From: an uncultured Bacteroidota bacterium
GTDB taxonomy: Bacteria > Bacteroidota > Bacteroidia > Bacteroidales > VadinHA17
DNA length: 64,000 bases
Direction: 5' to 3'
Assembly (NCBI GenBank): GCA_903844815.1
Contig: CAIMVD010000200.1
Span: forward strand, 28,110-92,109
Shown here: positions 42,943-61,233 of the stretch, piece after piece
How positions within the stretch are numbered: position 1 is the first letter of the stretch
Layout of the letters: every line of letters begins with the position of its first letter
The notes under the pieces: model-generated
The model's input: the letters and a program-made list of their open reading frames with translations, nothing else
What the model was told of the DNA's origin: nothing
Database searches by the model: none
Made by a program: the position numbers and the translations under genes

Positions 42943-42986
42943 AATATCAGCCTATTATTTTTTCTTGTCTCTGGACTGTGTTTTTT

Positions 42987-43739
42987 TCAGAATCCTATTG
43001 AATTTCCTCCGTCGACAGGCAGCACTACTCCTGTTATGAAAGAAGCCGACCCTGAAACAAGAAAAAGTGCGGCATCAGCTACCTCTTCAGGTTTGCCGAA
43101 TCTTCCTAACGGGGTTCTTGAAATGACCTTTTTTTTACGCTCAGGGTCTTTTTCCATAGCCAGTGTTGACATGTTTGTCTTAATAAATCCCGGAGCCAGA
43201 CAGTTTACCCGTATGCCATGATGAGCGAGTTCAACAGCCATGGCCCTCGTCATGCCTTCAATAGCTGATTTTGAAGCAGTATAGGCAATGACATTAGGAA
43301 TGCCGTACTGTGAAGCCATAGAACTGATATTCAGAACAACACCCATGGATTGTTTTTGCATAACTTTGGTTACCTCCCTTGTAAGACAGAACATAGCTGT
43401 CTGGTTTGTAAGAATAACTTTCTGATACTCCTCGTCGGTAACTTCATCTATAGCTTTTTTAAGATGCATTCCTGCATTATTTACCAGGATATCTATTTTC
43501 CTGTGTTTTTCAACAATTCCCTTTACTACAACTGGCAAATCAGAGATCCGTGTCAGGTCACAACCAACAAAATCTGCAAGTTCTCCAAGAGTCTCGCAGG
43601 CAAGTTTAAGTCTGGTCTTGTCGCGACCGATAAGGATCACATGAATACTATTCTCTACAAATTTTTTTGCAATTGCGAAGCCTATACCTGATGCCCCACC
43701 AGTTATAACTGCAATCCTGTTATTACTTTTGAGTGCCAT
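42987..43739 (-). CDS. short-chain dehydrogenase/reductase (possible fructuronate or gluconate-type reductase)
   Basis: TGGASGIGFA and YTASKSA motifs. Located next to the ManD-like gene. Confidence 0.8.
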   Translation of the reverse strand: MALKSNNRIAVITGGASGIGFAIAKKFVENSIHVILIGRDKTRLKLACETLGELADFVGCDLTRISDLPVVVKGIVEKHRKIDILVNNAGMHLKKAIDEVTDEEYQKVILTNQTAMFCLTREVTKVMQKQSMGVVLNISSMASQYGIPNVIAYTASKSAIEGMTRAMAVELAHHGIRVNCLAPGFIKTNMSTLAMEKDPERKKKVISRTPLGRFGKPEEVADAALFLVSGSASFITGVVLPVDGGNSIGF

Positions 43740-43749
43740 ATTTTAAGAA

Positions 43750-44784
43750 TTAACTAATATTTCTTTTTAGAGATGACTGACGTAAAATAAGACTATGTTT
43801 TAAAATAATCGTATTTAAATTAGGTGATTGAGTGTTTCTTAACTTATTTATAAGCAATAAGGCAGCAATTTCACCCATCTCCCTGGCAGGATAATCAACT
43901 GATGTAAGATTAGGTTGAATTACCTGGCTTATTGGTTCGTTATTAAAACCTGCTATAGCAATATCCTCAGGAATTTTAATCCCATTTTTAAGCAGTTCAA
44001 TTATAATAGCCACTGCCGATGTGTCGTTTGATGTAAATATCCCGTCGGGGAGGATTTTCATGCTCAGTATCTTTTTGGCAGTTTCGGTTCCTGACTCTCC
44101 ACTCAAATCGGATAATACAACAAGGTTCTCATCGAAAATGATTTTATTGTCTTTAAGTGCTTGTTTATAGCCTCTGAAACGCTCAGCATAAACATTACTA
44201 AGAAGGTTCCCCCCCAGATGAACTATCTTCCGGCATCCCTGTTCAATTAAATGTGATGTGACCTCATATCCTGCTTTAAAATTATCTATTATAACGCTCA
44301 TGCAACTATTGCACTCTGATATACGGTCGAAAAAGACAAGAGGAATATTCTTATTTAGAATAATATTGAAATGATCGAGGTTCCTGGTATCTAAGGCCAG
44401 TGATACCAATAATCCATCCACCCTGGTGTTGAAGAGTGTGGAAACACATGAAATCTCTTGCTTCACCGACTCCTGCGATGAACTTATTATCAATCCGTAA
44501 CCATGCTGATTGGTCACCTTCTCCATACCGGCAATCACTGTAGCCATGAAATAACTGTTGAGTTTGGGAACTACAACACCTATTGTATTGGTATGCTTTT
44601 GCCTGAGATTGCCTGCAAACTTATTACGCTGGTAACCCATTTCATGAGCTGTTTCCCTGATCCTCTTAATTGTTTCCTTCCTGATACCCGGATTATCTTT
44701 CAACCCCCTGCTTACTGTGGAAGGCGAAATACCAAGAACTTTTGCAATATCATATATGGTGACCTCTTTGTGAATCTTCATCAT
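43750..44784 (-). CDS. LacI-family transcriptional regulator
   Basis: HTH TIYDIAKVLGISPSTVSRGL followed by a periplasmic-binding-protein fold. The start is set to the internal ATG at 44784 or 44781. The 88 upstream codons in the ORF track have no LacI counterpart. Confidence 0.85.
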   Translation of the reverse strand: MMKIHKEVTIYDIAKVLGISPSTVSRGLKDNPGIRKETIKRIRETAHEMGYQRNKFAGNLRQKHTNTIGVVVPKLNSYFMATVIAGMEKVTNQHGYGLIISSSQESVKQEISCVSTLFNTRVDGLLVSLALDTRNLDHFNIILNKNIPLVFFDRISECNSCMSVIIDNFKAGYEVTSHLIEQGCRKIVHLGGNLLSNVYAERFRGYKQALKDNKIIFDENLVVLSDLSGESGTETAKKILSMKILPDGIFTSNDTSAVAIIIELLKNGIKIPEDIAIAGFNNEPISQVIQPNLTSVDYPAREMGEIAALLLINKLRNTQSPNLNTIILKHSLILRQSSLKRNIS

Positions 44785-44847
44785 TATTGAGATAATACAC
44801 AAAAGTAAAATAAATAGAGAAAAAAATGGAAATAAAACCGGTTTTTT

Positions 44848-44861
44848 TGCAATCGGTTGCA
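44848..44861. promoter_or_regulatory. Candidate LacI-family operator TGCAATCGGTTGCA (site 1)
   Basis: 14-bp near-palindrome with a central CG (13 of 14 positions symmetric), 64 bp upstream of lacI. It is identical to the site at 45124. Confidence 0.55.
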
Positions 44862-45123
44862 ACAATCTTTTAAAAAACACTTTGTCTGATTGTCTCAATG
44901 TTTTCAGCCTTACCAGATCTATATTACAGAGCAAGTGACTTCTCCTTGAAATGTTACAGACACTAAGGAAAAATGTTAATTGCCTGAACAGGTGTGTTAC
45001 GAATGACGGAAACCTGGTTGTATAATATACTCTGGCCACTATGGACATATTAATAAGAGAAGCTGAAATAATACCGTACTAATTGTCACATGCCATAAAT
45101 ATTAACATTTTTTAATTATTTCC

Positions 45124-45137
45124 TGCAATCGGTTGCA
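45124..45137. promoter_or_regulatory. Candidate LacI-family operator TGCAATCGGTTGCA (site 2)
   Basis: Identical 14-mer, 150 bp upstream of the SusC-like start. Confidence 0.55.
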
Positions 45138-45286
45138 GTTTTTGAGTTTTATTTATATTATTGCAAAATAGAGAAGAAGTTCTTCTGGAGATAATTCTCC
45201 TAAATAAAAAGATGATTTGCCTGATTTTAGAGATTTATTTATTTTCACATTTCGAACCTACTTAATTAACCATTTAATCAAACTCT

Positions 45287-48200
45287 ATGAGAAAACTACT
45301 ACTGACTTTAATCATGCTGGTGGGGTTTGCAGGAATTGCACTGGCACAAAAAACTGTTACCGGTATTGTAACAGGGGAGGACAAAACTCCTCTGCCTGGA
45401 GTCTCGGTAATTGTTAAGGGGACCACTGTTGGTACTCTTACAAATGCAGACGGAGGTTTCAGTGTCACGGTTCCTGTTGACGGGAAAATTCTTATATTCT
45501 CCTTCGTCGGGATGAAATCGTATGAAGCTGAGATAGGAACACTAATGAAAATTGATGTTCAGCTTTCAAGTGATGTGAGTTTACTTGATGAAGTTGTTGT
45601 TGTCGGCTACGGAACCATGAGAAAGAAAGACCTTACGGGTGCTGTCTCCTCAGTGAAACCTGCCAGTCTTGAGAACCAGAAACCTCAGACTGTACAGGAC
45701 ATACTTCGCGGAAATGTTGCTGGTCTGAGTGTCAGCTTTTCGACAAACGCCAAAGGAGGCGGGTCGATGGAGATAAGGGGTGATAATACCCTTAAAACAA
45801 CATCTGCTCCTTTAATTGTACTCGATGGCGTGATTTACCAGGGTGGCATGGAGGATATAAATCCCAATGACATTGAAACGATTGACGTTCTGAAGGATGC
45901 CTCATCGGCTGCCATTTTTGGTTCCAGATCAGCGAATGGGGTAATTATAATCAGTACCAAGAAAGGTAAAGAAGGTAAACCTCTTATCAACATCAATTCG
46001 AGTGTTGGGCTGGCTACAATGGCAACCCTTGAACCTGTGCACGATCCTTATGATTTTATCAACTGGCGAACAGATGTAATGAAGTCGCTGAATTATTACA
46101 ATGCAGCTACTAATACAAAGCTTTACAAATTTAATGATCCAGCTTCACTGCCCGATGGTGTTACAGAAGAGATGTGGCGTGATGGTTCAACAGGAGAGGT
46201 TAAAGACATCTGGCTCTCCCGTCTTGGGCTTCTTCCGCTTGAAATTACAAATTATAAAGCCGGAACGCCGGTTGACTGGACTGGTATGGTGTTCCAGAAC
46301 GGATTGCGTCAGGATCATAATCTTTCTATTTCAGGGAAGAAAAACGACGTGAATTATTATGTGTCGGTAGGCTATAATAAAAATGAAGGTATCGTTGTTG
46401 GTGATGAGTTTACAACGATCAGATCGAGAATTAATCTGGATGCCGAAATTACCAAATGGCTGAAAATCGGAATAAACACTCAATTTGCCAACCGCGATGA
46501 GAGTCATCTAAACTCAAATTTTGCAAATACAAGTGCTAACCCGACAGTCAACGCAGCCTGGGGCTTAAGGGTAAATAACTCTCCGTGGGGTTCCATCTAT
46601 AATAATGACGGAAAGACCATCAGGATCAGTCCTGTTGACGATCTGGGCCGGGGTGCAAAATATCCTCTTTATGATATGATGTTCCAGAATCGTTTCCGGG
46701 TTTATAATACCCTTAATAACAATTTATTTGCTAAACTTACTCTTCCACTGGGTATCACCTACGAGTTGAACTTTTCTCCGAGGTTTCAGTTCTATAAATA
46801 TTACAACCATCAGTCAGCCCTTCACGAAGAGTGGGCAAAATTTGGTGGCCAGGCTAACCGCGAAGAGAGTACAATTTACAGTTGGCAGGTAGATAACATT
46901 ATAAAGTGGAACAAAACAATTAAAGAGGACCATTTAGTCGATTTCACTTTCCTTTTTAATGCTGAAAAGTTTCAGAGCTGGCAGAGTGCTATGTCGACAC
47001 AGGGATTTTCCCCGACTGATGCCCTGGGATATCACAACATGAGCGCCGGTAAGAGCACAGCAAATTCTGTTTACAGTAATGATGAGTACAGCACGGGAGA
47101 TGCACTGATGGCACGAATTCTTTATTCATTCCGCGGAAAGTATATGTTCACCGGTTCCATACGACGCGACGGTTATTCGGCATTCGGACTTAAATATCCC
47201 CGTGGTACTTTTCCTTCATTAGCTGTTGGCTGGGTGATGTCGGAAGAGAATTTTATCAAAAACGATATTCTTACTTATGCGAAACTCCGCATTTCATGGG
47301 GAGAAAATGGTAACAGGGAAGTGGGAATGTATGATGCCCTCTCCTCAATGAGTATTGGAAAATATCCTTATCAGACACTCACCGGGACAATATATGAAAG
47401 TAATCAGCTTTATGTAAACAGGATGGCCAATCCAAATCTTAAGTGGGAAAAAGGAAGATCTCTTAACTTCGGATTTGATTATGGTTTCCTCGGTGGACTG
47501 TTTGATGGATCAATTGAATATTACAAGATGAATACACTTGATCTGCTGGTCGACCGCAAGCTTCCAGACCTTCTTGGATTCAGCTCAGTAGCATCCAATC
47601 TTGGTGAGCTTGAGAATAATGGTATTGAGTTTACCTTTAATGCAAGGGTAATGGATAAGCAGAATTTCAAGTGGAGGAGCGGTTTCAATATCTCTTACAA
47701 CAAAAACAAGATAATTCACCTTTATGGAGATATGGTTAATGTTACAGATGCTTCCGGCAATGTAATTGGTCAGAAGGAGGGAGATGATCCGACTAATGGC
47801 TGGTTTATCGGACACCCGATAAGTGAGATATGGCAGCCTAAAATTATGGGCGTTTGGCAGATAGGACAGGAAGCAGATGCCATAAAATATGGCCAGTACC
47901 CGGGTGACTTCCAACTAGAAGATGTTAATGCTGATGGCAAAATCAACCAGCTCGACAATCAGTTCCAGGGACAGACAGAACCTTTGGTTCGCTGGTATTT
48001 ACGCGAGGAATTCAATATTTATAGAAATTTTGATGTCTCTTTCTCCGTATATTCAAATATGGGACATTATGGAACCTATAATGTTGCAAAAAACCGTGAG
48101 AACTTTCCGGAAAGGGTAAACCAGTATGTTACTCCTTACTGGACTCCTGAAAATCCTCTTAACGACTATGCCCGCATCTATTCAAACGAAGGAGGTGCTG

Positions 48201-48424
48201 TTTTCAATGTCTATCGCGACAGAACTTTTATCAGGCTCGACAACTTCAGCGTGGCATATACACTTCCGTCATCAATTTGTCAGAAAATAAAGGTTGTTAA
48301 CCTGAAGATTTATGGTACTGTCAATAATGTAGCATACTGGGCACCAAACTGGTTGTTCTGGGATCCTGAAGAAAGCGGCCCTAATCCAAGGAACTTCACC
48401 ATTGGGATAAATCTCACATTATAA
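45287..48424 (+). CDS. SusC-like TonB-dependent outer-membrane transporter
   Basis: Signal peptide, a carboxypeptidase-regulatory-like domain (VTGIVTGEDKTPLPGVSVIVKGTTVGTLTNADGGF), the TonB-box region DEVVVVGYG, and a 1045-aa barrel. Confidence 0.92.
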   Translation: MRKLLLTLIMLVGFAGIALAQKTVTGIVTGEDKTPLPGVSVIVKGTTVGTLTNADGGFSVTVPVDGKILIFSFVGMKSYEAEIGTLMKIDVQLSSDVSLLDEVVVVGYGTMRKKDLTGAVSSVKPASLENQKPQTVQDILRGNVAGLSVSFSTNAKGGGSMEIRGDNTLKTTSAPLIVLDGVIYQGGMEDINPNDIETIDVLKDASSAAIFGSRSANGVIIISTKKGKEGKPLININSSVGLATMATLEPVHDPYDFINWRTDVMKSLNYYNAATNTKLYKFNDPASLPDGVTEEMWRDGSTGEVKDIWLSRLGLLPLEITNYKAGTPVDWTGMVFQNGLRQDHNLSISGKKNDVNYYVSVGYNKNEGIVVGDEFTTIRSRINLDAEITKWLKIGINTQFANRDESHLNSNFANTSANPTVNAAWGLRVNNSPWGSIYNNDGKTIRISPVDDLGRGAKYPLYDMMFQNRFRVYNTLNNNLFAKLTLPLGITYELNFSPRFQFYKYYNHQSALHEEWAKFGGQANREESTIYSWQVDNIIKWNKTIKEDHLVDFTFLFNAEKFQSWQSAMSTQGFSPTDALGYHNMSAGKSTANSVYSNDEYSTGDALMARILYSFRGKYMFTGSIRRDGYSAFGLKYPRGTFPSLAVGWVMSEENFIKNDILTYAKLRISWGENGNREVGMYDALSSMSIGKYPYQTLTGTIYESNQLYVNRMANPNLKWEKGRSLNFGFDYGFLGGLFDGSIEYYKMNTLDLLVDRKLPDLLGFSSVASNLGELENNGIEFTFNARVMDKQNFKWRSGFNISYNKNKIIHLYGDMVNVTDASGNVIGQKEGDDPTNGWFIGHPISEIWQPKIMGVWQIGQEADAIKYGQYPGDFQLEDVNADGKINQLDNQFQGQTEPLVRWYLREEFNIYRNFDVSFSVYSNMGHYGTYNVAKNRENFPERVNQYVTPYWTPENPLNDYARIYSNEGGAVFNVYRDRTFIRLDNFSVAYTLPSSICQKIKVVNLKIYGTVNNVAYWAPNWLFWDPEESGPNPRNFTIGINLTL

Positions 48425-48446
48425 TTTACATTTAAAACACAGATCT

Positions 48447-50327
48447 ATGAAATCAAATAATATAAAAAGATCTATTCGTATATTAATACTCATCCCGCTG
48501 ACATTCTGGATGGTGAGTTGTACTGATGAATGGCTTGAACCAAATCCGCTGTCTATCTTTACTCCGGAAAATGCTTTTATCGATTCCAGGGGGATGTATG
48601 GCGCGCTTACAGCATGCGAAAGAAATATCCGATATGAGTTTTACGGTGATGGTGCACCTATGATTACCGAACTCCTCTTTTCTGAAGTATGTGTGGAAGG
48701 TACGACTGATAAGCCTGGCCCTGCTATGAATCTGAATATTCAGATCACACCAAGTTCACAGCTGAACAATGTTGATTATAACAGGATTGGCTGGTTCTGG
48801 CTCGAATATTACAATGGAATTAAATACTCAAACGTGGTCATTTCCAGGATTGATAATACAAAATGGACTTCCGAAACTGAAAGGAATGCTGTATTAGGTT
48901 CAGCGTACTTTCACAGGGCATACCGATATTATCGTCTGACTCAGCAATTTGGTGACGTTCCATTTATTGGAAAGGAGATTACAGAACCTAAACTCGACCT
49001 GGCTACAACAAAGAGGGAAGTCATTCTTGAAAAAATCAAAAAAGACATGGAATATGCTTCTACATGGTGTCTGGATAATGTTGACCGCGGTCGTGTTACG
49101 AAGGGAGCTTGCCAGCACCTGCTTTCGAAGATTTGTCTTGCATTGGGTGATTTTGACGGAGCTATAGCTGCTGCAAATTCTGTTATTGACGGAGGTGTAT
49201 ACAGTCTTATGAAGACTAATTTCGGTTCTGTCCCAAAGGAAGAAGGCGACTATCTGGCAAAACTAGGTATTGTCAGGGATGATGTTGTTTCAAGACTGCA
49301 CTGGTGGGCAAATAAAGCAATTGCTGCAAACAAGGAGGTACTATTCATGGTTCTGTCGAAAGAAGACCTTATTGAATCCCGGCTTGACCTTCAGATTATG
49401 CGACAGGCTGTCCCATTCTGGGGTGTATCTAATGCTAACTTCCTGAGGACTCCTGATGGGAAAGGCCCGGGAACTTCGGATCTTGCAGCGCAGGATATCA
49501 AGCTGGTTGAGACTTTTGGCCGGGGAATTGGCCGTGCACGTGGAACCAATTATTCTACAAGAAAAATATGGGATGACCCAAATGATCTGAGACATAAACG
49601 GTACAACTGGATGAATATGGAGGATCTTGTGTACAACCATCCCAACCTGAAAACAAATCCTTATTACAATAAACCACTTCAGTTAAAGGATGCGACAGGC
49701 AAGGTTCTTACAACAGATACAATTCGTAACTGGTTTGGCTGGCCTCATTACAAATTATACAATCCTGATCCCAGAAGGATACAACCACAGGGAGGATCTT
49801 ACGACTGGTATGTATATCGTTTGGCTGAAACCTATCTTCAACGTGCGGAAGCATATTGGTGGAAAGGTGATATTTCAAATGCGATGGCTGATGTTAATAC
49901 TATCAGAACAAGGGCAGGATGTGCTCCATATACTGATGTTTCAAAATTTGATATTGGGACTATTCTCGATGAACGTGCACGCGAACTCTTCTGGGAAGAG
50001 CCAAGAAAAACTGAGTTATCGAGGATCGCATTTCTTTTTGCCAAAACAGGAAAATCCTATAAAGGAACCAGCTACACCACAGCTGATTTTGGGACCAAGA
50101 ATTTCTACTTTGACAGGATTATGGAGAAAACCGACTGGTACAATAAGGGGGTGAAAGCCAATAACGGTCAGCAATATACAATGAGTGCATACCATGTGCT
50201 ATGGCCAATTCCTCAGGCTTCAATCCAATCGAATACCCAGGGCATAATCAATCAGAATTTTGGCTACTCCGGTTATGAAAATAATGTTCCTCCGCTTACT
50301 GTAATTCCAATTGAGGACGATATTTAA
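48447..50327 (+). CDS. SusD/RagB-family surface glycan-binding lipoprotein
   Basis: Lipobox WMVSC. Immediately downstream of SusC. Its length and TPR-like composition are typical of SusD. Confidence 0.85.
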   Translation: MKSNNIKRSIRILILIPLTFWMVSCTDEWLEPNPLSIFTPENAFIDSRGMYGALTACERNIRYEFYGDGAPMITELLFSEVCVEGTTDKPGPAMNLNIQITPSSQLNNVDYNRIGWFWLEYYNGIKYSNVVISRIDNTKWTSETERNAVLGSAYFHRAYRYYRLTQQFGDVPFIGKEITEPKLDLATTKREVILEKIKKDMEYASTWCLDNVDRGRVTKGACQHLLSKICLALGDFDGAIAAANSVIDGGVYSLMKTNFGSVPKEEGDYLAKLGIVRDDVVSRLHWWANKAIAANKEVLFMVLSKEDLIESRLDLQIMRQAVPFWGVSNANFLRTPDGKGPGTSDLAAQDIKLVETFGRGIGRARGTNYSTRKIWDDPNDLRHKRYNWMNMEDLVYNHPNLKTNPYYNKPLQLKDATGKVLTTDTIRNWFGWPHYKLYNPDPRRIQPQGGSYDWYVYRLAETYLQRAEAYWWKGDISNAMADVNTIRTRAGCAPYTDVSKFDIGTILDERARELFWEEPRKTELSRIAFLFAKTGKSYKGTSYTTADFGTKNFYFDRIMEKTDWYNKGVKANNGQQYTMSAYHVLWPIPQASIQSNTQGIINQNFGYSGYENNVPPLTVIPIEDDI

Positions 50328-50376
50328 ATAATATGTTAAGGAATTAGTTTTAATGCTATATTTCCAATAGATTTAG

Positions 50377-50406
50377 TTCCGGTACGACAGAGATGTCGTA
50401 CCGGAA
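50377..50406 (+). terminator. Perfect 12-bp stem hairpin between susD-like and downstream genes (attenuator or terminator candidate)
   Basis: ttccggtacgac agagat gtcgtaccggaa. It is followed only by tt, so there is no strong U-tract. Confidence 0.4.
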
Positions 50407-50440
50407 TTGATTCTAAATACTATTTCAATAATATTATACC

Positions 50441-51820
50441 ATGAAAAGAAGAAAATTTATTTCAAATTCGATAGCTGCTGCTACAGGAGTTGTGATAATG
50501 CCAACTATTGTCCCATCAACCGTTTTCGGCAAGAATGCTCCAAGTGAAAGGATAAATATTGGTCAGATTGGTTTTGGAAGGATTGCCATGACTCACGACC
50601 TTCCTGAAACGATGGATTATGATGTGTCAAGGGTTGTTGCAGTTGCTGACGTCGACACCGTAAGGGCTGCAAAAGGGAAACAGTTTATTGAGGATTTCTA
50701 CTCGAAAAAAACCGGAAATAAGAACTATATAAATGTAAAAACTTATGGCGACTATCGTGAAATCCTTGCCGACAGCAGCATTGATGCCGTGATCATTTCA
50801 ACTCCTGACCACTGGCATGCCCAACCGGCCATCGAAGCCGCAATTGCAGGAAAAGACATTTATGTTCAGAAACCTACATCTCTGACAATTAAAGAGGGAA
50901 GGCTCCTGAGCGATGTTGTTCAACGGAAAAAGGTAATCCTGCAGGTGGGAACACAGCAACGGGCTATGTCGCAGTTCAGAATTGCCGCCGAACTGGTCAG
51001 GAATGGCAGAATAGGCAAGCTGCATACGGTTAAGATAGGACTGCCAGGTGATCCGGCCGGACCCGAAACAACTGAAATGCCAATTCCAAAAAATCTTAAC
51101 TATCAGGCATGGCTCGGATCAACACCTGAAGTTTACTACACTGAAACACGGGTTCATCCACAGAACAGTATGACTGATCGACCCGGATGGCTGCGTTGCG
51201 AACAATTCGGAGCAGGCATGATAACAGGCTGGGGACAGCATCATTTTGATTCAGCTGCCTGGGGAATGGATACTGAGTTAACTGGTCCTATATCAGTTCA
51301 GACAATAGCTGAATTCCCAAAATTGGGAATGTGGGATGTCCACGGGGATTTTATGGCTAAAGCAGAATACGAGAACGGAATAACAATGTATACAAGTGGA
51401 GGTTATCCAAATGGAATACGATACGAAGGTACAGAAGGCTGGATTTTTGTAACTCGCGGATCGTATACTGCTTCTCCCACTGATCCTGTCGTTTCAGGAA
51501 GAAATTCAAAAGCTCTCGATGCAAGCGATCCTAAAATTCTTACATCGGTAATAAAGGAAAACGAAATTCATCTTTATAAAATCGATAACCAGCATGGGAA
51601 CTGGCTTGATTGTATAAAATCGCGTAAAGAGCCTGTTTCTCCGGTTGAGATCGGTCACCGCGCATGCACTGTTTGTCTGGTTACTCACATTAGCATGAAA
51701 CTTGAAAGAAAACTTACATGGAACCCTGAGAAAGAGGTTTTTGTGAATGACAATGAGGCTAATGCCATGCTATCAAGGGCACAGCGTGCACCTTACGGAA
51801 CTGATTATATTAAATTGTAA
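50441..51820 (+). CDS. Gfo/Idh/MocA-family oxidoreductase with twin-arginine signal
   Basis: TAT motif KRRKFISNSIAAATG. Family signatures INIGQIGFGRI, TPDHWH and VQKP. Confidence 0.85.
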   Translation: MKRRKFISNSIAAATGVVIMPTIVPSTVFGKNAPSERINIGQIGFGRIAMTHDLPETMDYDVSRVVAVADVDTVRAAKGKQFIEDFYSKKTGNKNYINVKTYGDYREILADSSIDAVIISTPDHWHAQPAIEAAIAGKDIYVQKPTSLTIKEGRLLSDVVQRKKVILQVGTQQRAMSQFRIAAELVRNGRIGKLHTVKIGLPGDPAGPETTEMPIPKNLNYQAWLGSTPEVYYTETRVHPQNSMTDRPGWLRCEQFGAGMITGWGQHHFDSAAWGMDTELTGPISVQTIAEFPKLGMWDVHGDFMAKAEYENGITMYTSGGYPNGIRYEGTEGWIFVTRGSYTASPTDPVVSGRNSKALDASDPKILTSVIKENEIHLYKIDNQHGNWLDCIKSRKEPVSPVEIGHRACTVCLVTHISMKLERKLTWNPEKEVFVNDNEANAMLSRAQRAPYGTDYIKL

Positions 51821-51836
51821 TTATTCTTTTGAAAAA

Positions 51837-52739
51837 ATGAAAAAACTCTGGTTTGCGACTTTGACAGTTGCCTGTTTGATGATTGTGATTCCTCTTTCTG
51901 CCGCAAAGATCACTGCTGTTAAAACAGGCTCAAAAATAAATGTTACAATAGATAATAAATACTTTACAAGCTATATCTTTTCAGACGATGAAAAGTATCC
52001 TTTTTTCTATCCGGTTAACGGTCCTGTCTCAGGAGGATCAGTTACATCTATGCGCAATGGTGAATACCCCCATCATAGCTCGCTGTTTTTCGGATGCGAT
52101 CTTGTTAACGGAGGAAATTACTGGCAGGAAGGTCTGGAAAGAGGCAGGATCATTTCGGTTAATGCTGAAATAAAGAAACAGGGCGGAGATACGCTCATTA
52201 TCACCGATGAGTGTATCTGGAGCCGGCCGGGAGCAATATCCCCGGTTAAAGACACCAGGATTATCACAATCACTGCCCCATCGCCAACTGTCAGTCAGAT
52301 AGATTTTGAAATTACTATTGAGATGCTTATTGATGTAACTATCAAAAAAACAAACCATTCACTATTCAGCGTAAGAATGGCAGCAGATCTGTCAGTAAAA
52401 AACGGCGGTACAATGATAAATGCTGAAGGTCTGATAAGCGAAAAAGCGACTTTCGGAAAAAATTCTCCATGGATGGATTTCTACGGCAAACGCGGAGATG
52501 CAACCGAAGGTCTTGCAATCTTCCAGCATCCTTCCAACCCCTGGTTTCCATCAGCATGGTTCACACGCGATTACGGTTTCATGTCGCCCACACCGATGTA
52601 CTGGCCCGAAAACGGAACTGAAACGACTCTGAAAAAAGGAACTGCTTTAAATCTGCGTTACCGTGTCATGGTACATGCCGGCGACCATAACCAGGCAGGA
52701 ATAGCAGAGGCATTCGAAAAATATAAAAACGAAAAATAA
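51837..52739 (+). CDS. PmoA-family / DUF6807 protein, secreted, function unknown
   Basis: YPFFYPVNGP and HHSSLFFGCDLVNGGNYW resemble the DUF6807 family. Signal peptide from the internal ATG at 51837. It lies 16 bp after the oxidoreductase. Confidence 0.6.
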   Translation: MKKLWFATLTVACLMIVIPLSAAKITAVKTGSKINVTIDNKYFTSYIFSDDEKYPFFYPVNGPVSGGSVTSMRNGEYPHHSSLFFGCDLVNGGNYWQEGLERGRIISVNAEIKKQGGDTLIITDECIWSRPGAISPVKDTRIITITAPSPTVSQIDFEITIEMLIDVTIKKTNHSLFSVRMAADLSVKNGGTMINAEGLISEKATFGKNSPWMDFYGKRGDATEGLAIFQHPSNPWFPSAWFTRDYGFMSPTPMYWPENGTETTLKKGTALNLRYRVMVHAGDHNQAGIAEAFEKYKNEK

Positions 52740-52852: not shown

Positions 52853-53554
52853 TTAAAGATTCTTCTCCTTCACTTTACGATAGATACAATCCTTCATATC
52901 GCAAATACGGCAGGTATAGGAATTGCTGCGGACCTCTCTTCCAATACCAATTATTCCGCTAATGGATTTTTCGGGACTCATAAGGGCAGATTCGGTCAAC
53001 CTTATTTCGCAAAAATTATCAGGAATAAGCTGAAATAATTTATGCTGTTCTGCCACATCCCATCCGCAATACCCGGGGCTGTAACGATTAGTTATCTTCA
53101 ATCCTTCGGAAGCAGCGGCCTGTTCGAGCTTATCCTGCATCAGATCAGCAGCAGACTCAACAACTTCACTTCCTATTACATCATAAATATAACCTTTCAG
53201 AAAATCTCTATCCTGCATAGCTTTTCTGCTTCTGATTCCAATCTCATCACCGGCAGTACATAAAAAGAGCGCTGCAGAATCAGATTTCTTTATCTGTCCG
53301 AATACTATCTTTTTAATATCAAAACTGATACCTTCTATATTTACTGATCTGGAGTTTTTGTCAAAACTGACATCATTGAAAACGGAATACTGTGCCTTTA
53401 CTGAACAAATCTTCTGGGATTCAATTAACAGTTCATCAATAAGATCCATAACAAAAGTACGGTCGTCACCCTCAGTATATCCAAGGACATTCTCAATCTG
53501 TGAAACAGTGATTTTCAAATCCTTAAAGTCAAATTGATACGTCATGGCCCGCAT
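52853..53554 (-). CDS. stand-alone MetH-type reactivation (AdoMet-binding) domain protein
   Basis: RYSPGYCGWDVAEQHKLF...IRLTESALMSPEKSISG aligns with the E. coli MetH C-terminal RPAPGYPACPEH...LTESFAMWPGASVSG. There is an extra C-terminal CRICDMKDC motif. Confidence 0.7.
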   Translation of the reverse strand: MRAMTYQFDFKDLKITVSQIENVLGYTEGDDRTFVMDLIDELLIESQKICSVKAQYSVFNDVSFDKNSRSVNIEGISFDIKKIVFGQIKKSDSAALFLCTAGDEIGIRSRKAMQDRDFLKGYIYDVIGSEVVESAADLMQDKLEQAAASEGLKITNRYSPGYCGWDVAEQHKLFQLIPDNFCEIRLTESALMSPEKSISGIIGIGREVRSNSYTCRICDMKDCIYRKVKEKNL

Positions 53555-53614
53555 AGTAAAGAAATTTACTTAAAGATACATATTGAATCTGAGAAGTCGG
53601 TTGTGTAATTAGCC

Positions 53615-55069
53615 TCATCTCGTGAGAGTTGGGGGGTAAAGCCCTGATTCTGTTACAATTCTCGCGACTATTTCTTCCCATCCCATGGTCATAATATGAA
53701 TACCGTTAACTCCCTTCTTTCTCTTTATTGAATCAATAATTTCAAGTGCTATCTGAATCCCCTCCTCGGAAGCAGATGCCCCTGCCCTGGCAATTCGTTT
53801 CAGGATGCTTTCAGGCAGACTTACACCCGGAACTTTCATATGAAGATATTGAGCCATTTTAAGGCTTTTAAGAGGGGTAATGCCTATGAGAATGTATACT
53901 TTATTAAGTATATCCCTTTTATCAAGTTGTTCAAGCCACATGTCGAGTCTGTCTGGTTCGAAGATCAGATTCGTCTGAAAAAACTGGGCTCCTGCATTTA
54001 CCTTCTTATGGTCCTTAATCGCCTGTAATGCAGGATCGGAAGCAAAAGGAGAAGTTGCTGCTCCAATAAATAACCTGGGAGGATGGTTCATTTTTCTGCC
54101 ATCAAGATATCGGCCCTCATCTCTCATTCTTCTTAATATCCAGAGCATCTGAACCGAATCAATATCAACGAAATTCAAGTCGCCCACAGGAGATGGACCA
54201 ATGCGGGGATTATCTCCTGTTATGCAAAGTACATTGTTAACACCCATTGCATTTAGCCCGACTGCTGCTGACTGAAGACCAGCCCTTGTTGTATTGCTTG
54301 AAGCAATCTGCAAAACAGGCTCTGCGTTAATCCCAACAGCTATATTACAACAGCCGATGCTCGACATCCTCGGTCGGGCCGATGATGAATCAGTAAAATT
54401 AATGGCTGTTACATAAGGCTTAACAGACTCAATGTCACTTATAAGTTTATCAGTGCCGGCACTTAGAGGAGGAGTCACCTCAGTGGCTACAACGAACTCT
54501 CCGCTTCTCAGCCTCCTCTCAAATTCTGATGCCGGTTCAATATATCCTGGAGAATGATAAATTGAATCTCCATTCCACCACTCAGGCTGCCTTATAGTCT
54601 TAAATACCGAATCCCATACAACACTTTTTATTGCTACGTCAGAGGAAAATACTCCACCAATGAATTTACCGGTACCAACCTTTCTGATCTGTCTGACAAC
54701 TTCACCCCATGTCTCAGTACCTACCCTTTCCCAATCAAGAGGAGGTAACACTTCAAGTAATAGTTCTTCTCTCCCCTTTTGAAATGCTCTTTTATAGATT
54801 GCATACCAAATGCATTTCCTTGTTTCATCGACATAACACATTTTATCGGGAGTAACTCCACCGCAAGGACCGTTCCTCATCCCTTTAGGGCATTCCATCG
54901 GGCAGATAAATGCTGTCTCCTGAAGCAGGCAATTTCCGCACATGCGGCAGCCAAAAAGCGGCCCCTTTACAAGAAGCTCTGTCCTGGCTAAAACCCGTCT
55001 TCCGAATCTTTCCCGTTTGAATGGGTAAAATGCAGGTTGCCATCTGCGGGCGGGTTTAATACATGACAT
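53615..55069 (-). CDS. MetV-like Cys-rich domain fused to methylenetetrahydrofolate reductase (MetF)
   Basis: The N-terminal segment FGCRMCGNCLLQETAFICPMECPKGMRNGPCGG matches the MTHFR_C/MetV type. It is followed by an MTHFR-like TIM barrel (FVVATEVTPP...VLCITGDNP). Confidence 0.7.
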   Translation of the reverse strand: MSCIKPARRWQPAFYPFKRERFGRRVLARTELLVKGPLFGCRMCGNCLLQETAFICPMECPKGMRNGPCGGVTPDKMCYVDETRKCIWYAIYKRAFQKGREELLLEVLPPLDWERVGTETWGEVVRQIRKVGTGKFIGGVFSSDVAIKSVVWDSVFKTIRQPEWWNGDSIYHSPGYIEPASEFERRLRSGEFVVATEVTPPLSAGTDKLISDIESVKPYVTAINFTDSSSARPRMSSIGCCNIAVGINAEPVLQIASSNTTRAGLQSAAVGLNAMGVNNVLCITGDNPRIGPSPVGDLNFVDIDSVQMLWILRRMRDEGRYLDGRKMNHPPRLFIGAATSPFASDPALQAIKDHKKVNAGAQFFQTNLIFEPDRLDMWLEQLDKRDILNKVYILIGITPLKSLKMAQYLHMKVPGVSLPESILKRIARAGASASEEGIQIALEIIDSIKRKKGVNGIHIMTMGWEEIVARIVTESGLYPPTLTR

Positions 55070-55102
55070 ACCTGGAAATAAAAGAATTTATCTGAAAACA
55101 AA

Positions 55103-55945
55103 CTAATTACTCTCCGATTGGAAATGTTCCACAAATCTCACAGCATAATCATCGCGTCCGAGAATCAGGTCGGCAGCTCTGACAATTGAAGTAATCTTTT
55201 CAGGGTTTGCTATCGGGCAGGTCAGGCCGTTCAAAATAGCCAGGACCATGAAGGCTGAATTAAGCACTTCACGATTTGGCAATCCGAATGAAATATTGCT
55301 TGCACCCTGTGTAATATTAAGACCAAGTTTATCATGAATCAGTTTTATTGTCGCCAGGGTAACGAGGCAGGCAGAAGGGTCGGCACTAACTGCCATTGCA
55401 AGCGGATCAATAATAACATCTTCCTGCTTAATTCCCGCCATCATAGCTCTTTCCAGAATTTTCTCTGCTATTGCAAACCTTTTGTGAGGATCATGGGTAA
55501 TACCATCATCATCCATGCAAAGACCTATTATTGCAGCGCCATATTCTTTTGCAACAGGGAGGAGAGCATTAAGCGATCGTTCTTCGCCATTTACTGAATT
55601 TATCAGGCACTTACCTCCGGCAACTTTCAAAGCGGCTTCTATGGCTTTAGGATTCGGAGAATCAATACATAGAGGAATATCGAACTGATCCCTTAAAGCA
55701 AGTACGACTTCCGGAAGAAGGCTTACATCGTCAACACCCGGAAAACCAACATTTACATCAAGGATATCGGCCCCCGACCTGATCTGGGCCTCTGCCAGTT
55801 CCAAAAGATAGGTAAAGTCATGCTCCTGTAAAGAGACAACAAGCTTTTTTCTTCTTGTAGGATTTATGCATTCGCCGATTATTACAACCGGACCTCCTGA
55901 ATCTATGTTAACTTCAGCTGTTTTTCCTTTTAGTATTGTGATCAT
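55103..55945 (-). CDS. pterin-binding methyl-THF:corrinoid methyltransferase (AcsE/MeTr, MetH pterin-domain type)
   Basis: IIGECINPT, ADILDVNVG, LCIDSPNPKAIEAALK, LINSVNGEE, AAIIGLCMDDDGI and GASNISFGLP are collinear with what I recall of Moorella MeTr and the MetH folate domain. Confidence 0.8.
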   Translation of the reverse strand: MITILKGKTAEVNIDSGGPVVIIGECINPTRRKKLVVSLQEHDFTYLLELAEAQIRSGADILDVNVGFPGVDDVSLLPEVVLALRDQFDIPLCIDSPNPKAIEAALKVAGGKCLINSVNGEERSLNALLPVAKEYGAAIIGLCMDDDGITHDPHKRFAIAEKILERAMMAGIKQEDVIIDPLAMAVSADPSACLVTLATIKLIHDKLGLNITQGASNISFGLPNREVLNSAFMVLAILNGLTCPIANPEKITSIVRAADLILGRDDYAVRFVEHFQSESN

Positions 55946-55956
55946 TTCAAATGATT

Positions 55957-56625
55957 TTATGATGCAAGCTGTTTCAGGTAATTAACTGCTCCCTGAGGAT
56001 CGGGCGAATAAAAATCGGCACCTATTTTCTGGCAATAATCCATTGTTACGGGTGCTCCCCCGACAAGTATTTTAAGGTCAGAATGTTTTTCCCTAATTGC
56101 CGCAACAGTTTTCTTCATATTCTCCATTGTAGTGGTCAGGAGAGCCGACAAGCCTATTACTGATCCCGGATGCTCATCAATAGCCTTCAGGAATTTTTCG
56201 GTTCCTACATCGACACCAAGATCGATGACTTCCCAGCCTCCACCCTCAATCATCATTGCAACAAGGTTCTTACCTATATCATGAAGATCGCCGGAAACCG
56301 TTCCGATAATAAATTTACCCTTTCTCTTTGTCTCTCCCGACTGAAAAAAAGGTTTGATATGCACCATTGCACTGTTCATTGCCTTGGCTGCCATAAGCAT
56401 CTGGGGGACATAAATCTCTTTTCTGCTGAATTTCCCTCCTACGATGGCCATGGCCGGAATAAGGGCATTTTCGAGGATCTCGTCAGGTTTAATCCCCGAC
56501 TCAAGAGCTTTTCGGGCCAGTTCATCTGCTCCATCCTGGTCCTTCATGTTGGGAGGATAGGGTGATATTTTATTGATCTTTCCGAATTCAACACAAAGTG
56601 CGAGTTTTTCAAGAATGTCGCTCAT
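55957..56625 (-). CDS. corrinoid (B12)-binding protein with N-terminal cap helix bundle
   Basis: DxHxxG motif GDLHDIGKNLV, plus SALLTTT and GGAPV. The start is set to the ATG at 56625 (MSDILEKL). Confidence 0.85.
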   Translation of the reverse strand: MSDILEKLALCVEFGKINKISPYPPNMKDQDGADELARKALESGIKPDEILENALIPAMAIVGGKFSRKEIYVPQMLMAAKAMNSAMVHIKPFFQSGETKRKGKFIIGTVSGDLHDIGKNLVAMMIEGGGWEVIDLGVDVGTEKFLKAIDEHPGSVIGLSALLTTTMENMKKTVAAIREKHSDLKILVGGAPVTMDYCQKIGADFYSPDPQGAVNYLKQLAS

Positions 56626-56669
56626 ATTATTTTTTTTGAAAGTTTTATAAAACAATCCATGATTCATCC

Positions 56670-56677
56670 CAAAGATA
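56670..56677 (-). promoter_or_regulatory. Candidate -7 box TATCTTTG for the corrinoid operon
   Basis: TAnnTTTG match on the minus strand, 45 nt upstream of the ATG. No clear -33 element. Confidence 0.3.
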
Positions 56678-56889: not shown

Positions 56890-57279
56890 ATGTATTGCAG
56901 AAATTGTGGAAACGAAGTATATGAAAAAGCAGTGATGTGTGTGGCCTGCGGCACACCTCCTAAAGCAGGTGATAAATATTGCTATCACTGTAAGTCCGAA
57001 ACTCCTCCAAATGCATCCGTTTGCATGAAATGCGGAGTAAGTTTGAGTCATAACTACCACTATAGCACTGAAGGTGAAGACTGGCTAACTGCTTTACTAC
57101 TCTGCTTTTTCCTTGGGATATTCGGTGTACACCGGTTTTATACAGGCCACACCGGTATTGGAGTGGTTCAGCTCCTAACACTTGGCGGATGTGGTATCTG
57201 GGCTTTAATCGATTTCATTTTAATAATCGTAGGAAGTTACAGAGATGCAAATGGCCGATTACTTGTCAGGAGATTTTAG
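56890..57279 (+). CDS. double zinc-ribbon + TM2-domain membrane protein
   Basis: CRNCGN...CVACG and CYHCK...CMKCG ribbons. TM2 motif [14 protein letters not shown]. Confidence 0.8.
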
Positions 57280-59336: not shown

Positions 59337-61233
59337 TCAATTCAGAACATACTTTTTCACAGTGATCTCTCCGAAAACAGGGGTAACGAAAGGTTTACCA
59401 TTCTTAATCCCTGCATTTCCGAATCCTGTGGCCGTTGAGATAAATGCCGTAAAATCGCCCTGATGTGAATTAACAATAAGCTCCTGGCTTACTGCATCAT
59501 ATCTCAATCCAGTCATTCCCTGGATCATTCCGTAGCCCGACATCGCCCTTGCGTACCAGTGACCGCATTCATATTCGTCAAAGGGATTCCTGATTTTACC
59601 ATCGTACCTGTTGCGGCATGCCCTAACGATTTCAAGAGCTTTTTCATTCTCGCCCATGAACATAAGGTGAGAGGCGACCTGGTATTCAATTCCGGTCCAG
59701 ACTTCGTTGCTGTATACGAACGGGAGCGAAAGCATCCCGCCCTTTGGCCAGGTACACAGAAGCAACCCTCCCTCTGAGCCCAGTGCATATGACGGCCGCT
59801 GCATGGAAAGTATTAGCAACAGGACGGATCGGCAGTGCCGATCTGAAGGTCTGATGTCCGTTAGTATCCTGACTATGAAAATATTCCGTTTCCCTCAGGG
59901 TACGTTCGAGTGATGGGAAAAGATGTGGTATTGCCTGAGCATAATTCCAGACATGCTGGCACGAACCAGCACAGCATCCCCATGAATCGCCGCAGCCTTC
60001 CCAGCTCCACAGCCGTCCGTCGGGCTGTCGAAGCACTGTCGGAGATTTGAGTATGGAAAGGTTTGCTGAAATTGCCTCAACAACCTCAGGAGGCAGGGTT
60101 GTATTAAAAAATGAATCCCTGAAGAGCGATGACTTTGCATTCAGATCGTTATAGTTTGTCTTCCAGTATGATGCAACCTCTTCAATACTGCTTAATTTCT
60201 TTGAATACCAGGGTTTATAAAAGGGATCCTTGCATGAACAGGCAGGGTCGGTGCATTCCTCGTCCTTCTTGTTTTTCGGTTCTTCTCCGTATCTGAGGTC
60301 CGAATCGGGAACATACCATGACATCATAAGCCTGATTACCCTTGTCGCGCCGGGTTCAAGAGTAAACGGAACATATAATGAGGCTCCGGGAGCATCCTTT
60401 TCAACGGGATCAGTATTCCTTGATTCGCCTTTCATTATTGTCTCCCATGTTATAGTAAGAGGGTCCCACCATCCTCCCCTGAACCAGCAGTGATCGACAA
60501 CGGTTGACGGCTCGCTTGTGAAAAAGGCGAAATCGCCTTTGGTTTCAGGCTTATCCTTAACGCCATCTTCTGTAAGAATAAACCCGTTTGAGATGGCCCT
60601 GATCCTGTTCTTTCCACCCCGCTGCTGCATAAAATTCCTTGAATTATATGAAAAGACAGCGTCAATCTTTGAGGAGCTTCTGTTTGTAAAAGTATACTCA
60701 ACAGCTCCGACCGGCAGGCTTGAATTATCAGCATCAGTCGGGACAAAGGGGCTCCATCCCGAAAGGGTTACATCGACCGGAATAGCCTCATCATGTAATT
60801 CTATAGTAGCATATGGAAATCGGGCTGTGAATTTTGCATCATTGAAACGAGGAAAACCATAGGTAGTGCTTTCCGACCCATTTGCCGATCCTGGCTTTCC
60901 AAATTTTTTCCAGTCGGGAACCTTTCCTTCGAGTATCCTTGTTCCGTTTTCGACACCTTTTACCGAAAGAGCAGCGAACATGCATGGTTCATTAAAGACG
61001 TCGGGCTTATTGCGCACCGACATATGAGAAATGCTTCCGGTCCCGTCGAGACAAAACATCCCGGCGCCTATTCCTCCGATAGGGAATGCAATACGGTCGA
61101 GGTTTTTCCCTGTATATGAGCCGTTGTAAAGATGCCCTTTTTCATCAGTTCCACTATTTTTAACTGAACATGATGAAGATACAACACAAAGAATAAAACC
61201 AATAACCAATTTATTACAAAGTCGATTATTCAT
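59337..61233 (-). pseudogene. GH116 (GBA2-type beta-glucosidase) remnant: frameshift plus apparent internal deletion
   Basis: The N-terminal ORF (59686-61233) carries a lipobox and GSCQHVWNYAQ...FHAAA. The C-terminal ORF (59337-59819) carries LPFVYSNEVWTGIEY and RNPFDEYECGHWYARAMS in another frame. The two frames meet near 59790. The roughly 200-250 aa that normally separate these motifs are missing. Confidence 0.6.

Follow-up and report, generated by a model that had tools for sequence, protein, structure and literature searches.

Four adjacent genes on the minus strand of a 64-kb stretch of Bacteroidota DNA, hereafter the window, raise the question of whether their products make methionine or remove methyl groups from another substrate. 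The original prediction described them as every module of cobalamin-dependent methionine synthase (MetH) except the homocysteine barrel, plus a methylene-tetrahydrofolate reductase, and offered two readings: a multi-part MetH with a distal homocysteine module, or a tetrahydrofolate (THF)-linked demethylation system. The ORF list of the window bears out the cluster, in which the genes are spaced by 11, 33 and 60 bp and follow the 5' to 3' order corrinoid protein (CoP), methyl-THF:corrinoid methyltransferase (MeTr), fused MetV-MetF reductase (MetVF) and reactivation protein (Act). Pfam HMM searches, the check that had been asked for, upheld all four domain assignments, and the description as MetH modules without the homocysteine barrel, plus the reductase, holds for the four proteins.

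The first gene (positions 55957 to 56625, minus strand) encodes CoP, which combines a B12-binding cap (B12-binding_2, PF02607, 2.8e-18) with a Rossmann B12-binding domain (PF02310, 9.6e-27), as MetH does; the His-on DxHxxG motif is present as GDLHDIGKNLV, the form originally quoted. The ORF is listed as 55957-56667, and because the orthologues in 70 loci measure 222 aa, the ATG at 56625 is the likely true start, giving a protein of 222 aa. Judged by its sequence, CoP is predicted to act as a methyl carrier. Its nearest NCBIfam models are MtgC and pyl_corrinoid, with scores under their cutoffs, and its nearest solved structures are 1Y80, MttC (7XCN), 4JGI and the B12 domain of MetH (1BMT, matched at 4.7e-30). 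The second gene (55103 to 55945, minus strand, 280 aa) encodes MeTr, a pterin-binding TIM barrel of the AcsE/MT-II/MtgA type (Pterin_bind, PF00809, 2.2e-30) and the counterpart of the methyl-THF-binding barrel of MetH. It clears the curated cutoff of NF005719, the NCBIfam model for methyl-THF:corrinoid/iron-sulfur protein methyltransferase (267.5 against 259 bits), and it is also matched at 142.6 bits by region 334-591 of the metH model TIGR02082. The nearest solved structures are the Desulfitobacterium hafniense O-demethylase MT-II (4O0Q), AcsE (2E7F and 1F6Y) and Thermotoga maritima MetH (1Q7M). In sequence, CoP and MeTr are slightly nearer to components of methylotrophy and O-demethylase systems than to MetH domains, which counts against a split MetH.

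MetVF (53615 to 55069, minus strand, 484 aa) consists of a Cys-rich MetV domain at residues ~35-114 (DUF5981/MTHFR_C, PF12225, 1.1e-24) and an MTHFR barrel at residues ~183-476 (PF02219, 4.1e-29). The same two modules form the MetVF of the acetogen C. ljungdahlii (PMC8760232, PMC8515935), but in the window they are fused as one polypeptide, and the genome context is without visible CODH/ACS. Homologues number more than 4466, and identity is 74% or higher throughout the best 120. MetVF is 64-66% identical to Anaerolineae proteins from AcsB-AcsD-AcsC-RACo-AcsE-MetVF-CooC clusters, and this similarity, along with the clearing of the AcsE-family model cutoff by MeTr, would be consistent with a remnant or partial Wood-Ljungdahl methyl branch feeding CODH/ACS or another acceptor. 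Such a branch is extremely improbable, however, as the carrier in the window is a MetH/Mtx-type His-on protein and not CoFeSP, MeTr shares only 33% identity with Anaerolineae AcsE, and acsB, acsC and acsD occur in none of the Bacteroidales loci; CoFeSP (AcsC/AcsD) and CODH/ACS beside AcsE were found only in Chloroflexota loci. Additionally, we know of no Wood-Ljungdahl system that includes a SAM-type Act, which argues against this origin.

Act itself (52853 to 53554, minus strand, 233 aa) is a stand-alone form of the AdoMet-dependent reactivation domain of MetH (Met_synt_B12, PF02965, 3.3e-09; score 37 bits, cutoff 25). Its motifs RYSPGYCGW and LTESALMSPEKSISG, both quoted in the prediction and present in the protein, align to residues 1134-1179 of E. 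coli MetH; RxxPGY and LTES..M.P..S.SG align to the same enzyme, with the SAM-binding motifs conserved. A sequence search matches PDB 1J6R (T. maritima TM0269), and the AF2 model of Act finds 1J6R as its best Foldseek match (TMt 0.77), ahead of MetH activation domains; 6BM5 and 1MSK also match the predicted fold. TM0269, the best match by both sequence and fold, is likewise a separate reactivation protein of ~200-230 aa. The T. maritima MetH (TM0268) fuses the homocysteine, pterin and B12 modules in one protein, whereas all are separate here. Unlike the TM0269-like proteins that adjoin a multidomain MetH, which are without the motif, the Act of the window has four conserved cysteines (C163, C215, C218 and C223); speculatively, these could bind a metal or an Fe-S cluster through which electrons enter. 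To our knowledge, PF02965-type reactivation has so far been linked to methionine synthase, which counts for a split MetH.

The module missing from the window is the homocysteine-binding (Hcy) zinc barrel (PF02574) with its Cys-Cys-Cys zinc site. No Hcy-binding ORF was found by phmmer in the 64-kb window, and in all other window-type loci the 10 kb on either side of the operon contain no Hcy gene either, an observation that weighs against a split MetH. The label "orphan" given to the operon was nevertheless too strong, as Bacteroidales MAGs encode many stand-alone Hcy proteins; their family has at least 8000 matches, with annotated members in MAGs of Bacteroidales, Bacteroidota and Prolixibacteraceae. 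In locus L073, from a Lentimicrobiaceae MAG, a stand-alone Hcy gene with the zinc motif GGCCGTTPEHI is followed by CoP and then by Act, and MeTr-MetVF lies 3.5 kb downstream, with both groups within 8.5 kb. No second CoP or Act was found in this 21-kb locus, and one of each serves as the shared copy. The Hcy-CoP-Act arrangement is seen again in locus L090, and Hcy often stands in a tight operon with CoP and Act of the window family (L099, L107, L119 and L124). Zinc cysteines C211, C277 and C278 are invariant in the Hcy proteins beside CoP-Act, including those of L073, L090 and many metagenome loci. Among the 19 metagenome stand-alone Hcy loci with at least 3 kb of flank on both sides, CoP of the window family lies within 3 kb of the Hcy gene in 9 and Act in 6.

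The window-type proteins and their Hcy-linked counterparts share 62-64% identity for CoP and 38-42% for Act, and at a given MetVF divergence the window-type CoP and Act are closer to one another than to the Hcy-linked ones. Because of these identity gaps, the two types could be paralogous subfamilies and not strict orthologues. Also, some stand-alone Hcy genes adjoin canonical MetF and full-length MetH; therefore, the family also occurs outside split systems, a further point against a split MetH. Neither a SAM nor a cobalamin riboswitch was found upstream of the operon in the window and 15 related loci, which counts in the same direction.

The four-gene operon is common in uncultured anaerobic Bacteroidales. 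Relatives of MetVF occur in at least 498 species-level genomes, and among the best species-level loci, 64 could be evaluated. Of these, 44 have the full set of four genes, all in uncultured Bacteroidales, and 43 of the 44 complete loci form one operon in window order; the remaining one is L073, split as described above. The proteins of the operon are 65-88% identical across many MAGs, a range typical of housekeeping genes. Because of the linkage in L073, and because about half of the well-flanked Hcy genes adjoin CoP, a multi-part MetH is the best reading of the operon. Of the two readings first offered it is the better supported, with a single CoP and Act shared in L073 and frequent Hcy-CoP-Act operons. 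The operon probably encodes the folate-side half of a MetH-like cobalamin methyltransferase built from several subunits, as well as the enzyme that supplies it with methyl-THF; the Hcy module would be encoded elsewhere.

For such an enzyme we infer the following direction of flux, electron donors and Hcy partner in the source genome. MetVF would reduce methylene-THF to methyl-THF, probably with reduced ferredoxin as the electron donor by analogy with the acetogen MetVF enzymes, and MeTr would transfer the methyl group from methyl-THF to the Co(I) of the stand-alone CoP. A separate Hcy-binding zinc barrel of ~294 aa (PF02574), encoded outside the window, would then use methyl-Co(III) to form methionine. 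Co(II) arising by oxidation would be rescued by Act through reductive methylation with SAM, a step modelled on the MetH activation domain and on T. maritima TM0269.

Precedents for a multi-part enzyme are the three-part MetH of Phaeobacter inhibens (PMC5764234) and MtgC/MtgD/MtgE of Ruegeria pomeroyi (PMC12478193). In the split MetH of Rhodobacterales, as here, separate polypeptides serve as corrinoid protein, methyl-THF methyltransferase and homocysteine methyltransferase. The first of these is nearer to Mtx-type carriers than to the MetH domain, the Hcy module may be encoded apart from the other parts, and the architecture allows the carrier to be shared with other methyltransferases. The Rhodobacterales enzyme is reactivated by RamA-like (DUF4445) and DUF1638 proteins, without a PF02965 protein, whereas the window operon encodes Act, a separate SAM-type protein in which four cysteines are conserved. 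The window genes also share one operon with a MetV-MetF reductase, their hosts are strict-anaerobe Bacteroidales, and their Hcy partner is a predicted one. If the split MetH is real, many uncultured Bacteroidales of sediments, fens and digesters would make methionine by a five-protein B12-dependent enzyme. Standard annotation, based on full-length metH or metE, would score that enzyme as absent, creating false methionine auxotrophs, and the B12 dependence of these Bacteroidales would be misjudged. The system would also represent a natural "exploded" MetH, useful for understanding how modules recognise one carrier, and its stand-alone SAM-type reactivator may have a metal centre of its own.

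A stand-alone corrinoid protein and a pterin-binding MT-II are also paired in anaerobic three-component methyltransferase systems, namely O-demethylases (Odm/Vdm/Mtv), the glycine-betaine Mtg system and mlp clusters (PMC10418091), and the structural likeness of MeTr to 4O0Q and of CoP to 4JGI and 1Y80 points to the same systems. A catabolic or dual-use role can be envisaged, in which a distal URO-D-type MT-I (MtaA/CmuA/OdmB superfamily) would load CoP from a methylated substrate, MeTr would run toward methyl-THF, and the methyl group would be oxidised by MetVF, then FolD and Fhs, leaving methionine synthesis as a side branch, as with MtgBCDE in Ruegeria. This role is rather unlikely, although several observations favour it. 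The CoP-MeTr-MetVF core, 65-73% identical, recurs in other Bacteroidales arrangements, some of which bring in URO-D methyltransferases or an activase of the RACo type, as in O-demethylase-type systems. In L080, URO-D-CoP-MeTr-MetVF-MFS sugar porter forms a tight operon behind AraC regulators, without Act; L086 has a RACo/RamA-like activase with CoP, plus AraC-FocA-Fhs-MeTr-MetVF; L078 carries MeTr-MetVF-RACo; and Fhs adjoins the core in L059 and L074. URO-D genes flank the Hcy gene in 13 of 72 stand-alone Hcy loci, and the two V2 loci, L073 and L090, also have one, as URO-D <> Hcy-CoP-Act. Both O-demethylase MT-I enzymes and methyltransferases acting on S/Se are known from the UroD superfamily (PMC10418091), and Ruegeria provides a precedent for a dual MetH/demethylase (PMC12478193).

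Against this role, MT-I, RACo, Fhs and a transporter are absent beside the window operon and all 43 window-order operons, which bear the MetH-style SAM reactivator instead. Neither a URO-D nor a RACo/RamA ORF was found by phmmer in the 64-kb window, and Pfam searches of its ORFs from 18.8 kb onward, up to 63.8 kb, found no MttB- or MtaB-type gene. Compared to O-demethylase and Mtg systems, the window operon is without MT-I and ATP-dependent activase and has a SAM reactivator and an MTHFR. The variant arrangements are rare (about 6 of the 64 evaluable loci), and most URO-D-linked clusters hold Hcy and not MeTr; therefore, they point to methionine formation and not to catabolism. Demethylation is thus not supported for the window, where MT-I is lacking and SusCD is rare among related loci, and stands as a general notion, as the core joins URO-D, RACo, Fhs/FocA and a sugar-porter MFS elsewhere.

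A further, unlikely reading is that CoP-MeTr-MetVF-Act forms the folate-facing core of a modular network with swappable partners (Hcy, URO-D/MtaA-like) and reactivators, serving both methionine synthesis and O2-free demethylation. The four-cysteine SAM-type Act or the RACo type may reactivate one common carrier, and methylated compounds from the environment (sugars or aromatics with methoxy groups, or methyl-S/Se compounds) may be demethylated through a distal URO-D MT-I. We know of no such route described in Bacteroidota. A catabolic role, if real, would be a sign of oxygen-independent demethylation in this phylum.

The original prediction also named methyl-ether sugars as candidate substrates, which would make the operon a demethylase coupled to the adjacent SusCD/GFO/DUF6807 locus. 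The convergent SusC/SusD/GFO/DUF6807 block beside the operon and the nearby xylA/xylB are real features of the window, and xylose, arabinose and sugar-acid genes lie around them. GFO neighbours occur in 38 loci and DUF6807 neighbours in 34, and in L080 the core is co-operonic with the sugar-porter-type MFS, with SusC close by. However, the proposed substrates derive only from this neighbourhood, and the adjacency to SusCD is lineage-specific: of about 88 loci, only 12 have SusC beside the operon, and in close relatives Act is followed directly by xylB-xylA, without SusCD. The neighbours are convergent and not co-transcribed, they recur only within one narrow group of relatives, whose synteny is due to shared ancestry, and MT-I is absent. 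Coupling to methyl-ether sugars is thus very improbable. Ahead of the operon, TATCTTTG (56670 to 56677, minus strand), ~45 nt upstream of the CoP ATG at 56625, is a candidate Bacteroidetes-type -7 promoter element; as read from the sequence, it matches TAnnTTTG, the Bacteroides promoter consensus of published promoter work.

Four genes lie on the minus strand of the window, separated by 11, 33 and 60 bp in the ORF list, exactly as the original prediction had described. The first encodes a corrinoid protein (CoP; ORF 55957-56667) with the Pfam domains B12-binding_2 and B12-binding, for which the nearest NCBIfam models, MtgC and pyl_corrinoid, scored below their cutoffs. The second encodes a methyl-THF:corrinoid methyltransferase (MeTr; 55103-55945, 280 aa) with the domain Pterin_bind, which exceeded the curated cutoff of the NCBIfam model for methyl-THF:corrinoid/iron-sulfur protein methyltransferase. 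The remaining two encode a fused MetV-MetF methylene-THF reductase (MetVF; 53615-55069), composed of DUF5981 (the MetV or "MTHFR C-terminal" domain) and MTHFR, and a stand-alone MetH-type SAM reactivation protein (Act; 52853-53554) with the domain Met_synt_B12. All four domain assignments made from the sequence were thus borne out by Pfam and NCBIfam. The previously proposed CoP start at 56625 is probably right, since the CoP orthologues are 222 aa long and a candidate TAnnTTTG-like element was read just 5' of the ATG at this position. No SAM or cobalamin riboswitch was found before the operon, whether in the window itself or at 15 related loci; the sole matches were a DUF805 RNA and one tRNA. 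Counts from a sigma-70 promoter and terminator scan equalled the background, such a scan being uninformative for Bacteroidetes.

The identity of Act was further supported by its alignment to E. coli MetH across the AdoMet-binding RxxPGY and LTES..M.P..S.SG motifs, and by its sequence match to the stand-alone activation protein TM0269 of T. maritima (1J6R). The same structure was the top match of the AlphaFold model of Act (pLDDT 75), followed by MetH activation domains. In a set of 74 Act proteins that accompany stand-alone corrinoid proteins, C163 (in PGYCGW) and C215, C218 and C223 (CxxCx4C) are conserved in at least 91%, whereas all four are absent from Act proteins adjoining multidomain MetH. 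This pattern hints at a metal or Fe-S center through which electrons could enter. The fold itself is confirmed by the model, but the cysteine-bearing segments have pLDDT below 50, too low to place the four cysteines relative to one another.

As for distribution, more than 4466 homologues of the MetVF fusion were retrieved from the protein collection, the top 120 being at least 74% identical, together with 3842 homologues of Act; the named homologues of both belong to Bacteroidia or Bacteroidales MAGs. When one genome per species was scanned, a MetVF relative was found in at least 498 genomes, the best 80 of which are all MAGs, mostly of Bacteroidales, with Anaerolineae/Chloroflexota at 64-66% identity. 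All four genes are present in 44 of the 64 loci with enough flanking sequence for evaluation. Complete or near-complete MAGs with the operon include OY970276.1 (L051, a chromosome of 4.99 Mb), CAWGJX010000004.1 (2.75 Mb) and JAXGYS010000003.1 (3.08 Mb). In Anaerolineae, MetVF lies within a Wood-Ljungdahl cluster, AcsB-AcsD-AcsC-RACo-AcsE-MetVF-CooC, where RACo is an ATP-dependent type of activase; these Chloroflexota loci (L072, L076, L081-L085 and L087) carry two copies of CooC. The identity of MetVF between the two groups implies exchange across phyla. The Anaerolineae AcsE and the window MeTr share only 33% identity.

Two functions had been proposed for the operon, namely a split MetH whose homocysteine module is encoded elsewhere, and a THF-linked demethylation system with methyl-ether sugars as candidate substrates. 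The sequences of CoP and MeTr are marginally nearer to methylotrophy and O-demethylase components (1Y80, MttC and 4JGI for CoP; D. hafniense MT-II 4O0Q and AcsE for MeTr) than to MetH domains, and the same leaning has been reported for the split MetH of Rhodobacterales (PMC12478193). Upstream of the operon and divergent from it are a TM2/zinc-ribbon gene preceded by the DUF805 RNA motif, and DUF2752, PD40/Tricorn-like and GH116 genes; downstream and convergent are DUF6807, GFO/IDH/MocA, SusD and SusC, followed by a LacI regulator, an SDR, an enolase-superfamily dehydratase, xylB, xylA and arabinose genes. Contigs from close relatives (1.86 Mb and 842 kb) have the same upstream genes, but in them Act leads directly to xylB-xylA without SusCD; xylB likewise directly follows Act in L001 and L005-L008. 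Across about 88 loci the recurring neighbors are PD40 (42), GFO (38), xylB (36), xylA (35) and DUF6807 (34), and SusC is rare, occurring in only 12. Because their orientation is convergent or divergent and their recurrence is confined to a narrow clade, these neighbors are read as shared ancestry rather than functional coupling, and the methyl-ether sugar proposal is not supported. No ORF for a homocysteine-binding protein, a MtaA/CmuA-like methyltransferase (URO-D) or RACo was found in the whole 64-kb window by phmmer, and no MttB- or MtaB-type gene appeared in a Pfam scan of the window ORFs from 18.8 to 63.8 kb.

Several other features of this neighborhood were observed. The segment at 41734-52739, containing the enolase-superfamily dehydratase, SDR, LacI regulator, SusC, SusD, GFO/IDH/MocA and DUF6807 genes, is a variable sugar-acid/PUL-like segment between the operon and xylB-xylA. 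The GFO and DUF6807 pair adjoins the operon in about 34-38 loci; with GFO in 38 loci and DUF6807 in 34, and only SusC rare, the whole block was ruled out as a unique insertion. The DUF805 RNA motif (RF03081; 56812-56878, plus strand; 59.4 bits, gathering score 51.1) lies in the leader of the TM2/double-zinc-ribbon gene (56890-57279), within the intergenic region that separates this gene from the divergent operon, and is conserved at the corresponding position in L001, L006 and L013. The GH116 gene (59337-61233, minus strand) is seemingly disrupted, consisting of a 515-aa ORF with the GH116 N-terminal domain only and an overlapping 160-aa ORF in another frame, about 632 codons together. Its syntenic counterpart in L006 and L007 is a single chain of 862 aa that includes both the N-terminal and the catalytic domain. 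The broken copy may be a pseudogene, or the assembly may be wrong here.

The main support for a split MetH comes from stand-alone homocysteine-binding barrels (Hcy; PF02574) outside the window. In L073, a Lentimicrobiaceae MAG locus, a divergent URO-D gene is followed by Hcy (293 aa, zinc motif GGCCGTTPEHI), CoP and Act, with MeTr-MetVF 3.5 kb further. With no second CoP or Act in this locus, the Hcy enzyme and MeTr must share a single carrier and a single reactivator; such a gene set is a methionine synthase divided into separate parts. The arrangement of URO-D divergent from Hcy-CoP-Act recurs on a contig of 816 kb (L090). The Hcy family has at least 8000 matches, with annotated members in MAGs of Bacteroidales, Bacteroidota and Prolixibacteraceae, and in L091 the gene is solitary in its genome. 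A metagenome scan with this family gave 72 stand-alone Hcy loci, in which CoP (18), URO-D (13), Act (10) and RACo (5) lie within 3 kb; where at least 3 kb was available on both sides, CoP was found in 9/19 and Act in 6/19. Tight operons include URO-D-CoP-Hcy-Act (L099, L119), URO-D-Hcy-CoP-Act (L107), CoP-Act-Hcy (L124) and CoP-URO-D/thioredoxin-Hcy-CobW-Act-RACo (L093, L094). This linkage indicates that CoP and Act of the families seen in the window regularly accompany a stand-alone Hcy methyltransferase. We therefore consider it moderately probable that the operon is the folate-side part of a split methionine synthase. The data establish the domain identities, the structure and conservation of the operon, and the linkage, and from these we infer the direction of flux, the electron donors and the Hcy partner in the window genome: MetVF would form methyl-THF, MeTr would methylate Co(I)-CoP, a predicted distal Hcy barrel would produce methionine, and Act would restore Co(II) by SAM-dependent reductive methylation.

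Split forms of MetH are known, such as the three-part enzyme of Phaeobacter (PMC5764234), MtgCDE of Ruegeria (PMC12478193) and TM0268/TM0269 of Thermotoga, and MetVF reductases are known from acetogens. Literature searches returned no description of the Bacteroidales CoP-MeTr-MetVF-Act cluster. A fully exploded MetH with a stand-alone SAM-type reactivator, its placement in the same operon as a single-chain MetV-MetF, its frequent occurrence among uncultured Bacteroidales and the mix-and-match variants of its core all appear to be undescribed.

Several results complicate the split-MetH reading. When the longest contigs of the cluster proteins were compared with those of stand-alone Hcy proteins, L073 itself was the only match. 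No overlap was found between the flanks of the Hcy loci and those of the four-gene cluster loci, and L132 was ruled out as a second link between Hcy and MetVF, its MTHFR being of a different type and only 28% identical. At comparable MetVF divergence, loci with the window-type operon share 81-85% identity in CoP and 61-70% in Act among themselves, compared to 58-65% and 35-42% with Hcy-linked loci. In a neighbor-joining tree the carriers linked to Hcy branch as a basal grade outside a tight window-type clade, and by these comparisons the two kinds of CoP and Act may be paralogous sets. Also, in three metagenome loci (L113, 1055-6595; L117, 1860-7356; L109, 761-3143) a stand-alone Hcy lies back-to-back with a canonical 318-aa MetF beside MetH, which is 1198 aa in L113 and L117 and truncated by the end of the contig in L109. 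The Hcy family thus also occurs outside split systems, and in these organisms the stand-alone protein must have a role other than replacing the Hcy module of MetH.

The varied combinations in which the CoP-MeTr-MetVF core occurs keep alive another explanation, that this core is a carrier hub like Ruegeria MtgBCDE (PMC12478193). L080 (5128-12849; Bacteroidales MAG MFD00905.bin.1.160) is a tight operon of URO-D (419 aa), CoP, MeTr, MetVF and an MFS sugar porter, without Act and with two AraC regulators and SusC upstream, and among the loci of this analysis is the strongest candidate for a genuine anaerobic demethylase in Bacteroidota. In L086 one strand carries CoP and then a 507-aa RACo/RamA-like activase, and the other carries AraC-FocA-Fhs-MeTr-MetVF; L078 has MeTr-MetVF-RACo, and Fhs is added to the core in L059 and L074. 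Such variants make up only about 6 of the 64 loci, and their extra parts are all absent from the window. L032 and L036 are without MeTr, and the MFS family of L080 recurs beside CoP-MetVF-Fhs in L059.

The URO-D proteins have MtaA/CmuA as top models, with scores below the cutoffs, and their superfamily includes thiol/selenol methyltransferases as well as substrate methyltransferases (MT-I) of O-demethylases (PMC10418091). A module of URO-D, CoP, Hcy and Act, of which no description was found, occurs in L099 (4756-8121), L119 (8083-11645), L107 (4052-7707), L093 (1256-7915), L073 (1918-5579) and L090 (8802-12338), and looks like a methionine synthase using a non-folate methyl donor. No folate methyltransferase is close to it in these six loci, the MeTr-MetVF of L073 being 3.5 kb off, and it is sometimes accompanied by CobW, a thioredoxin fusion or RACo.
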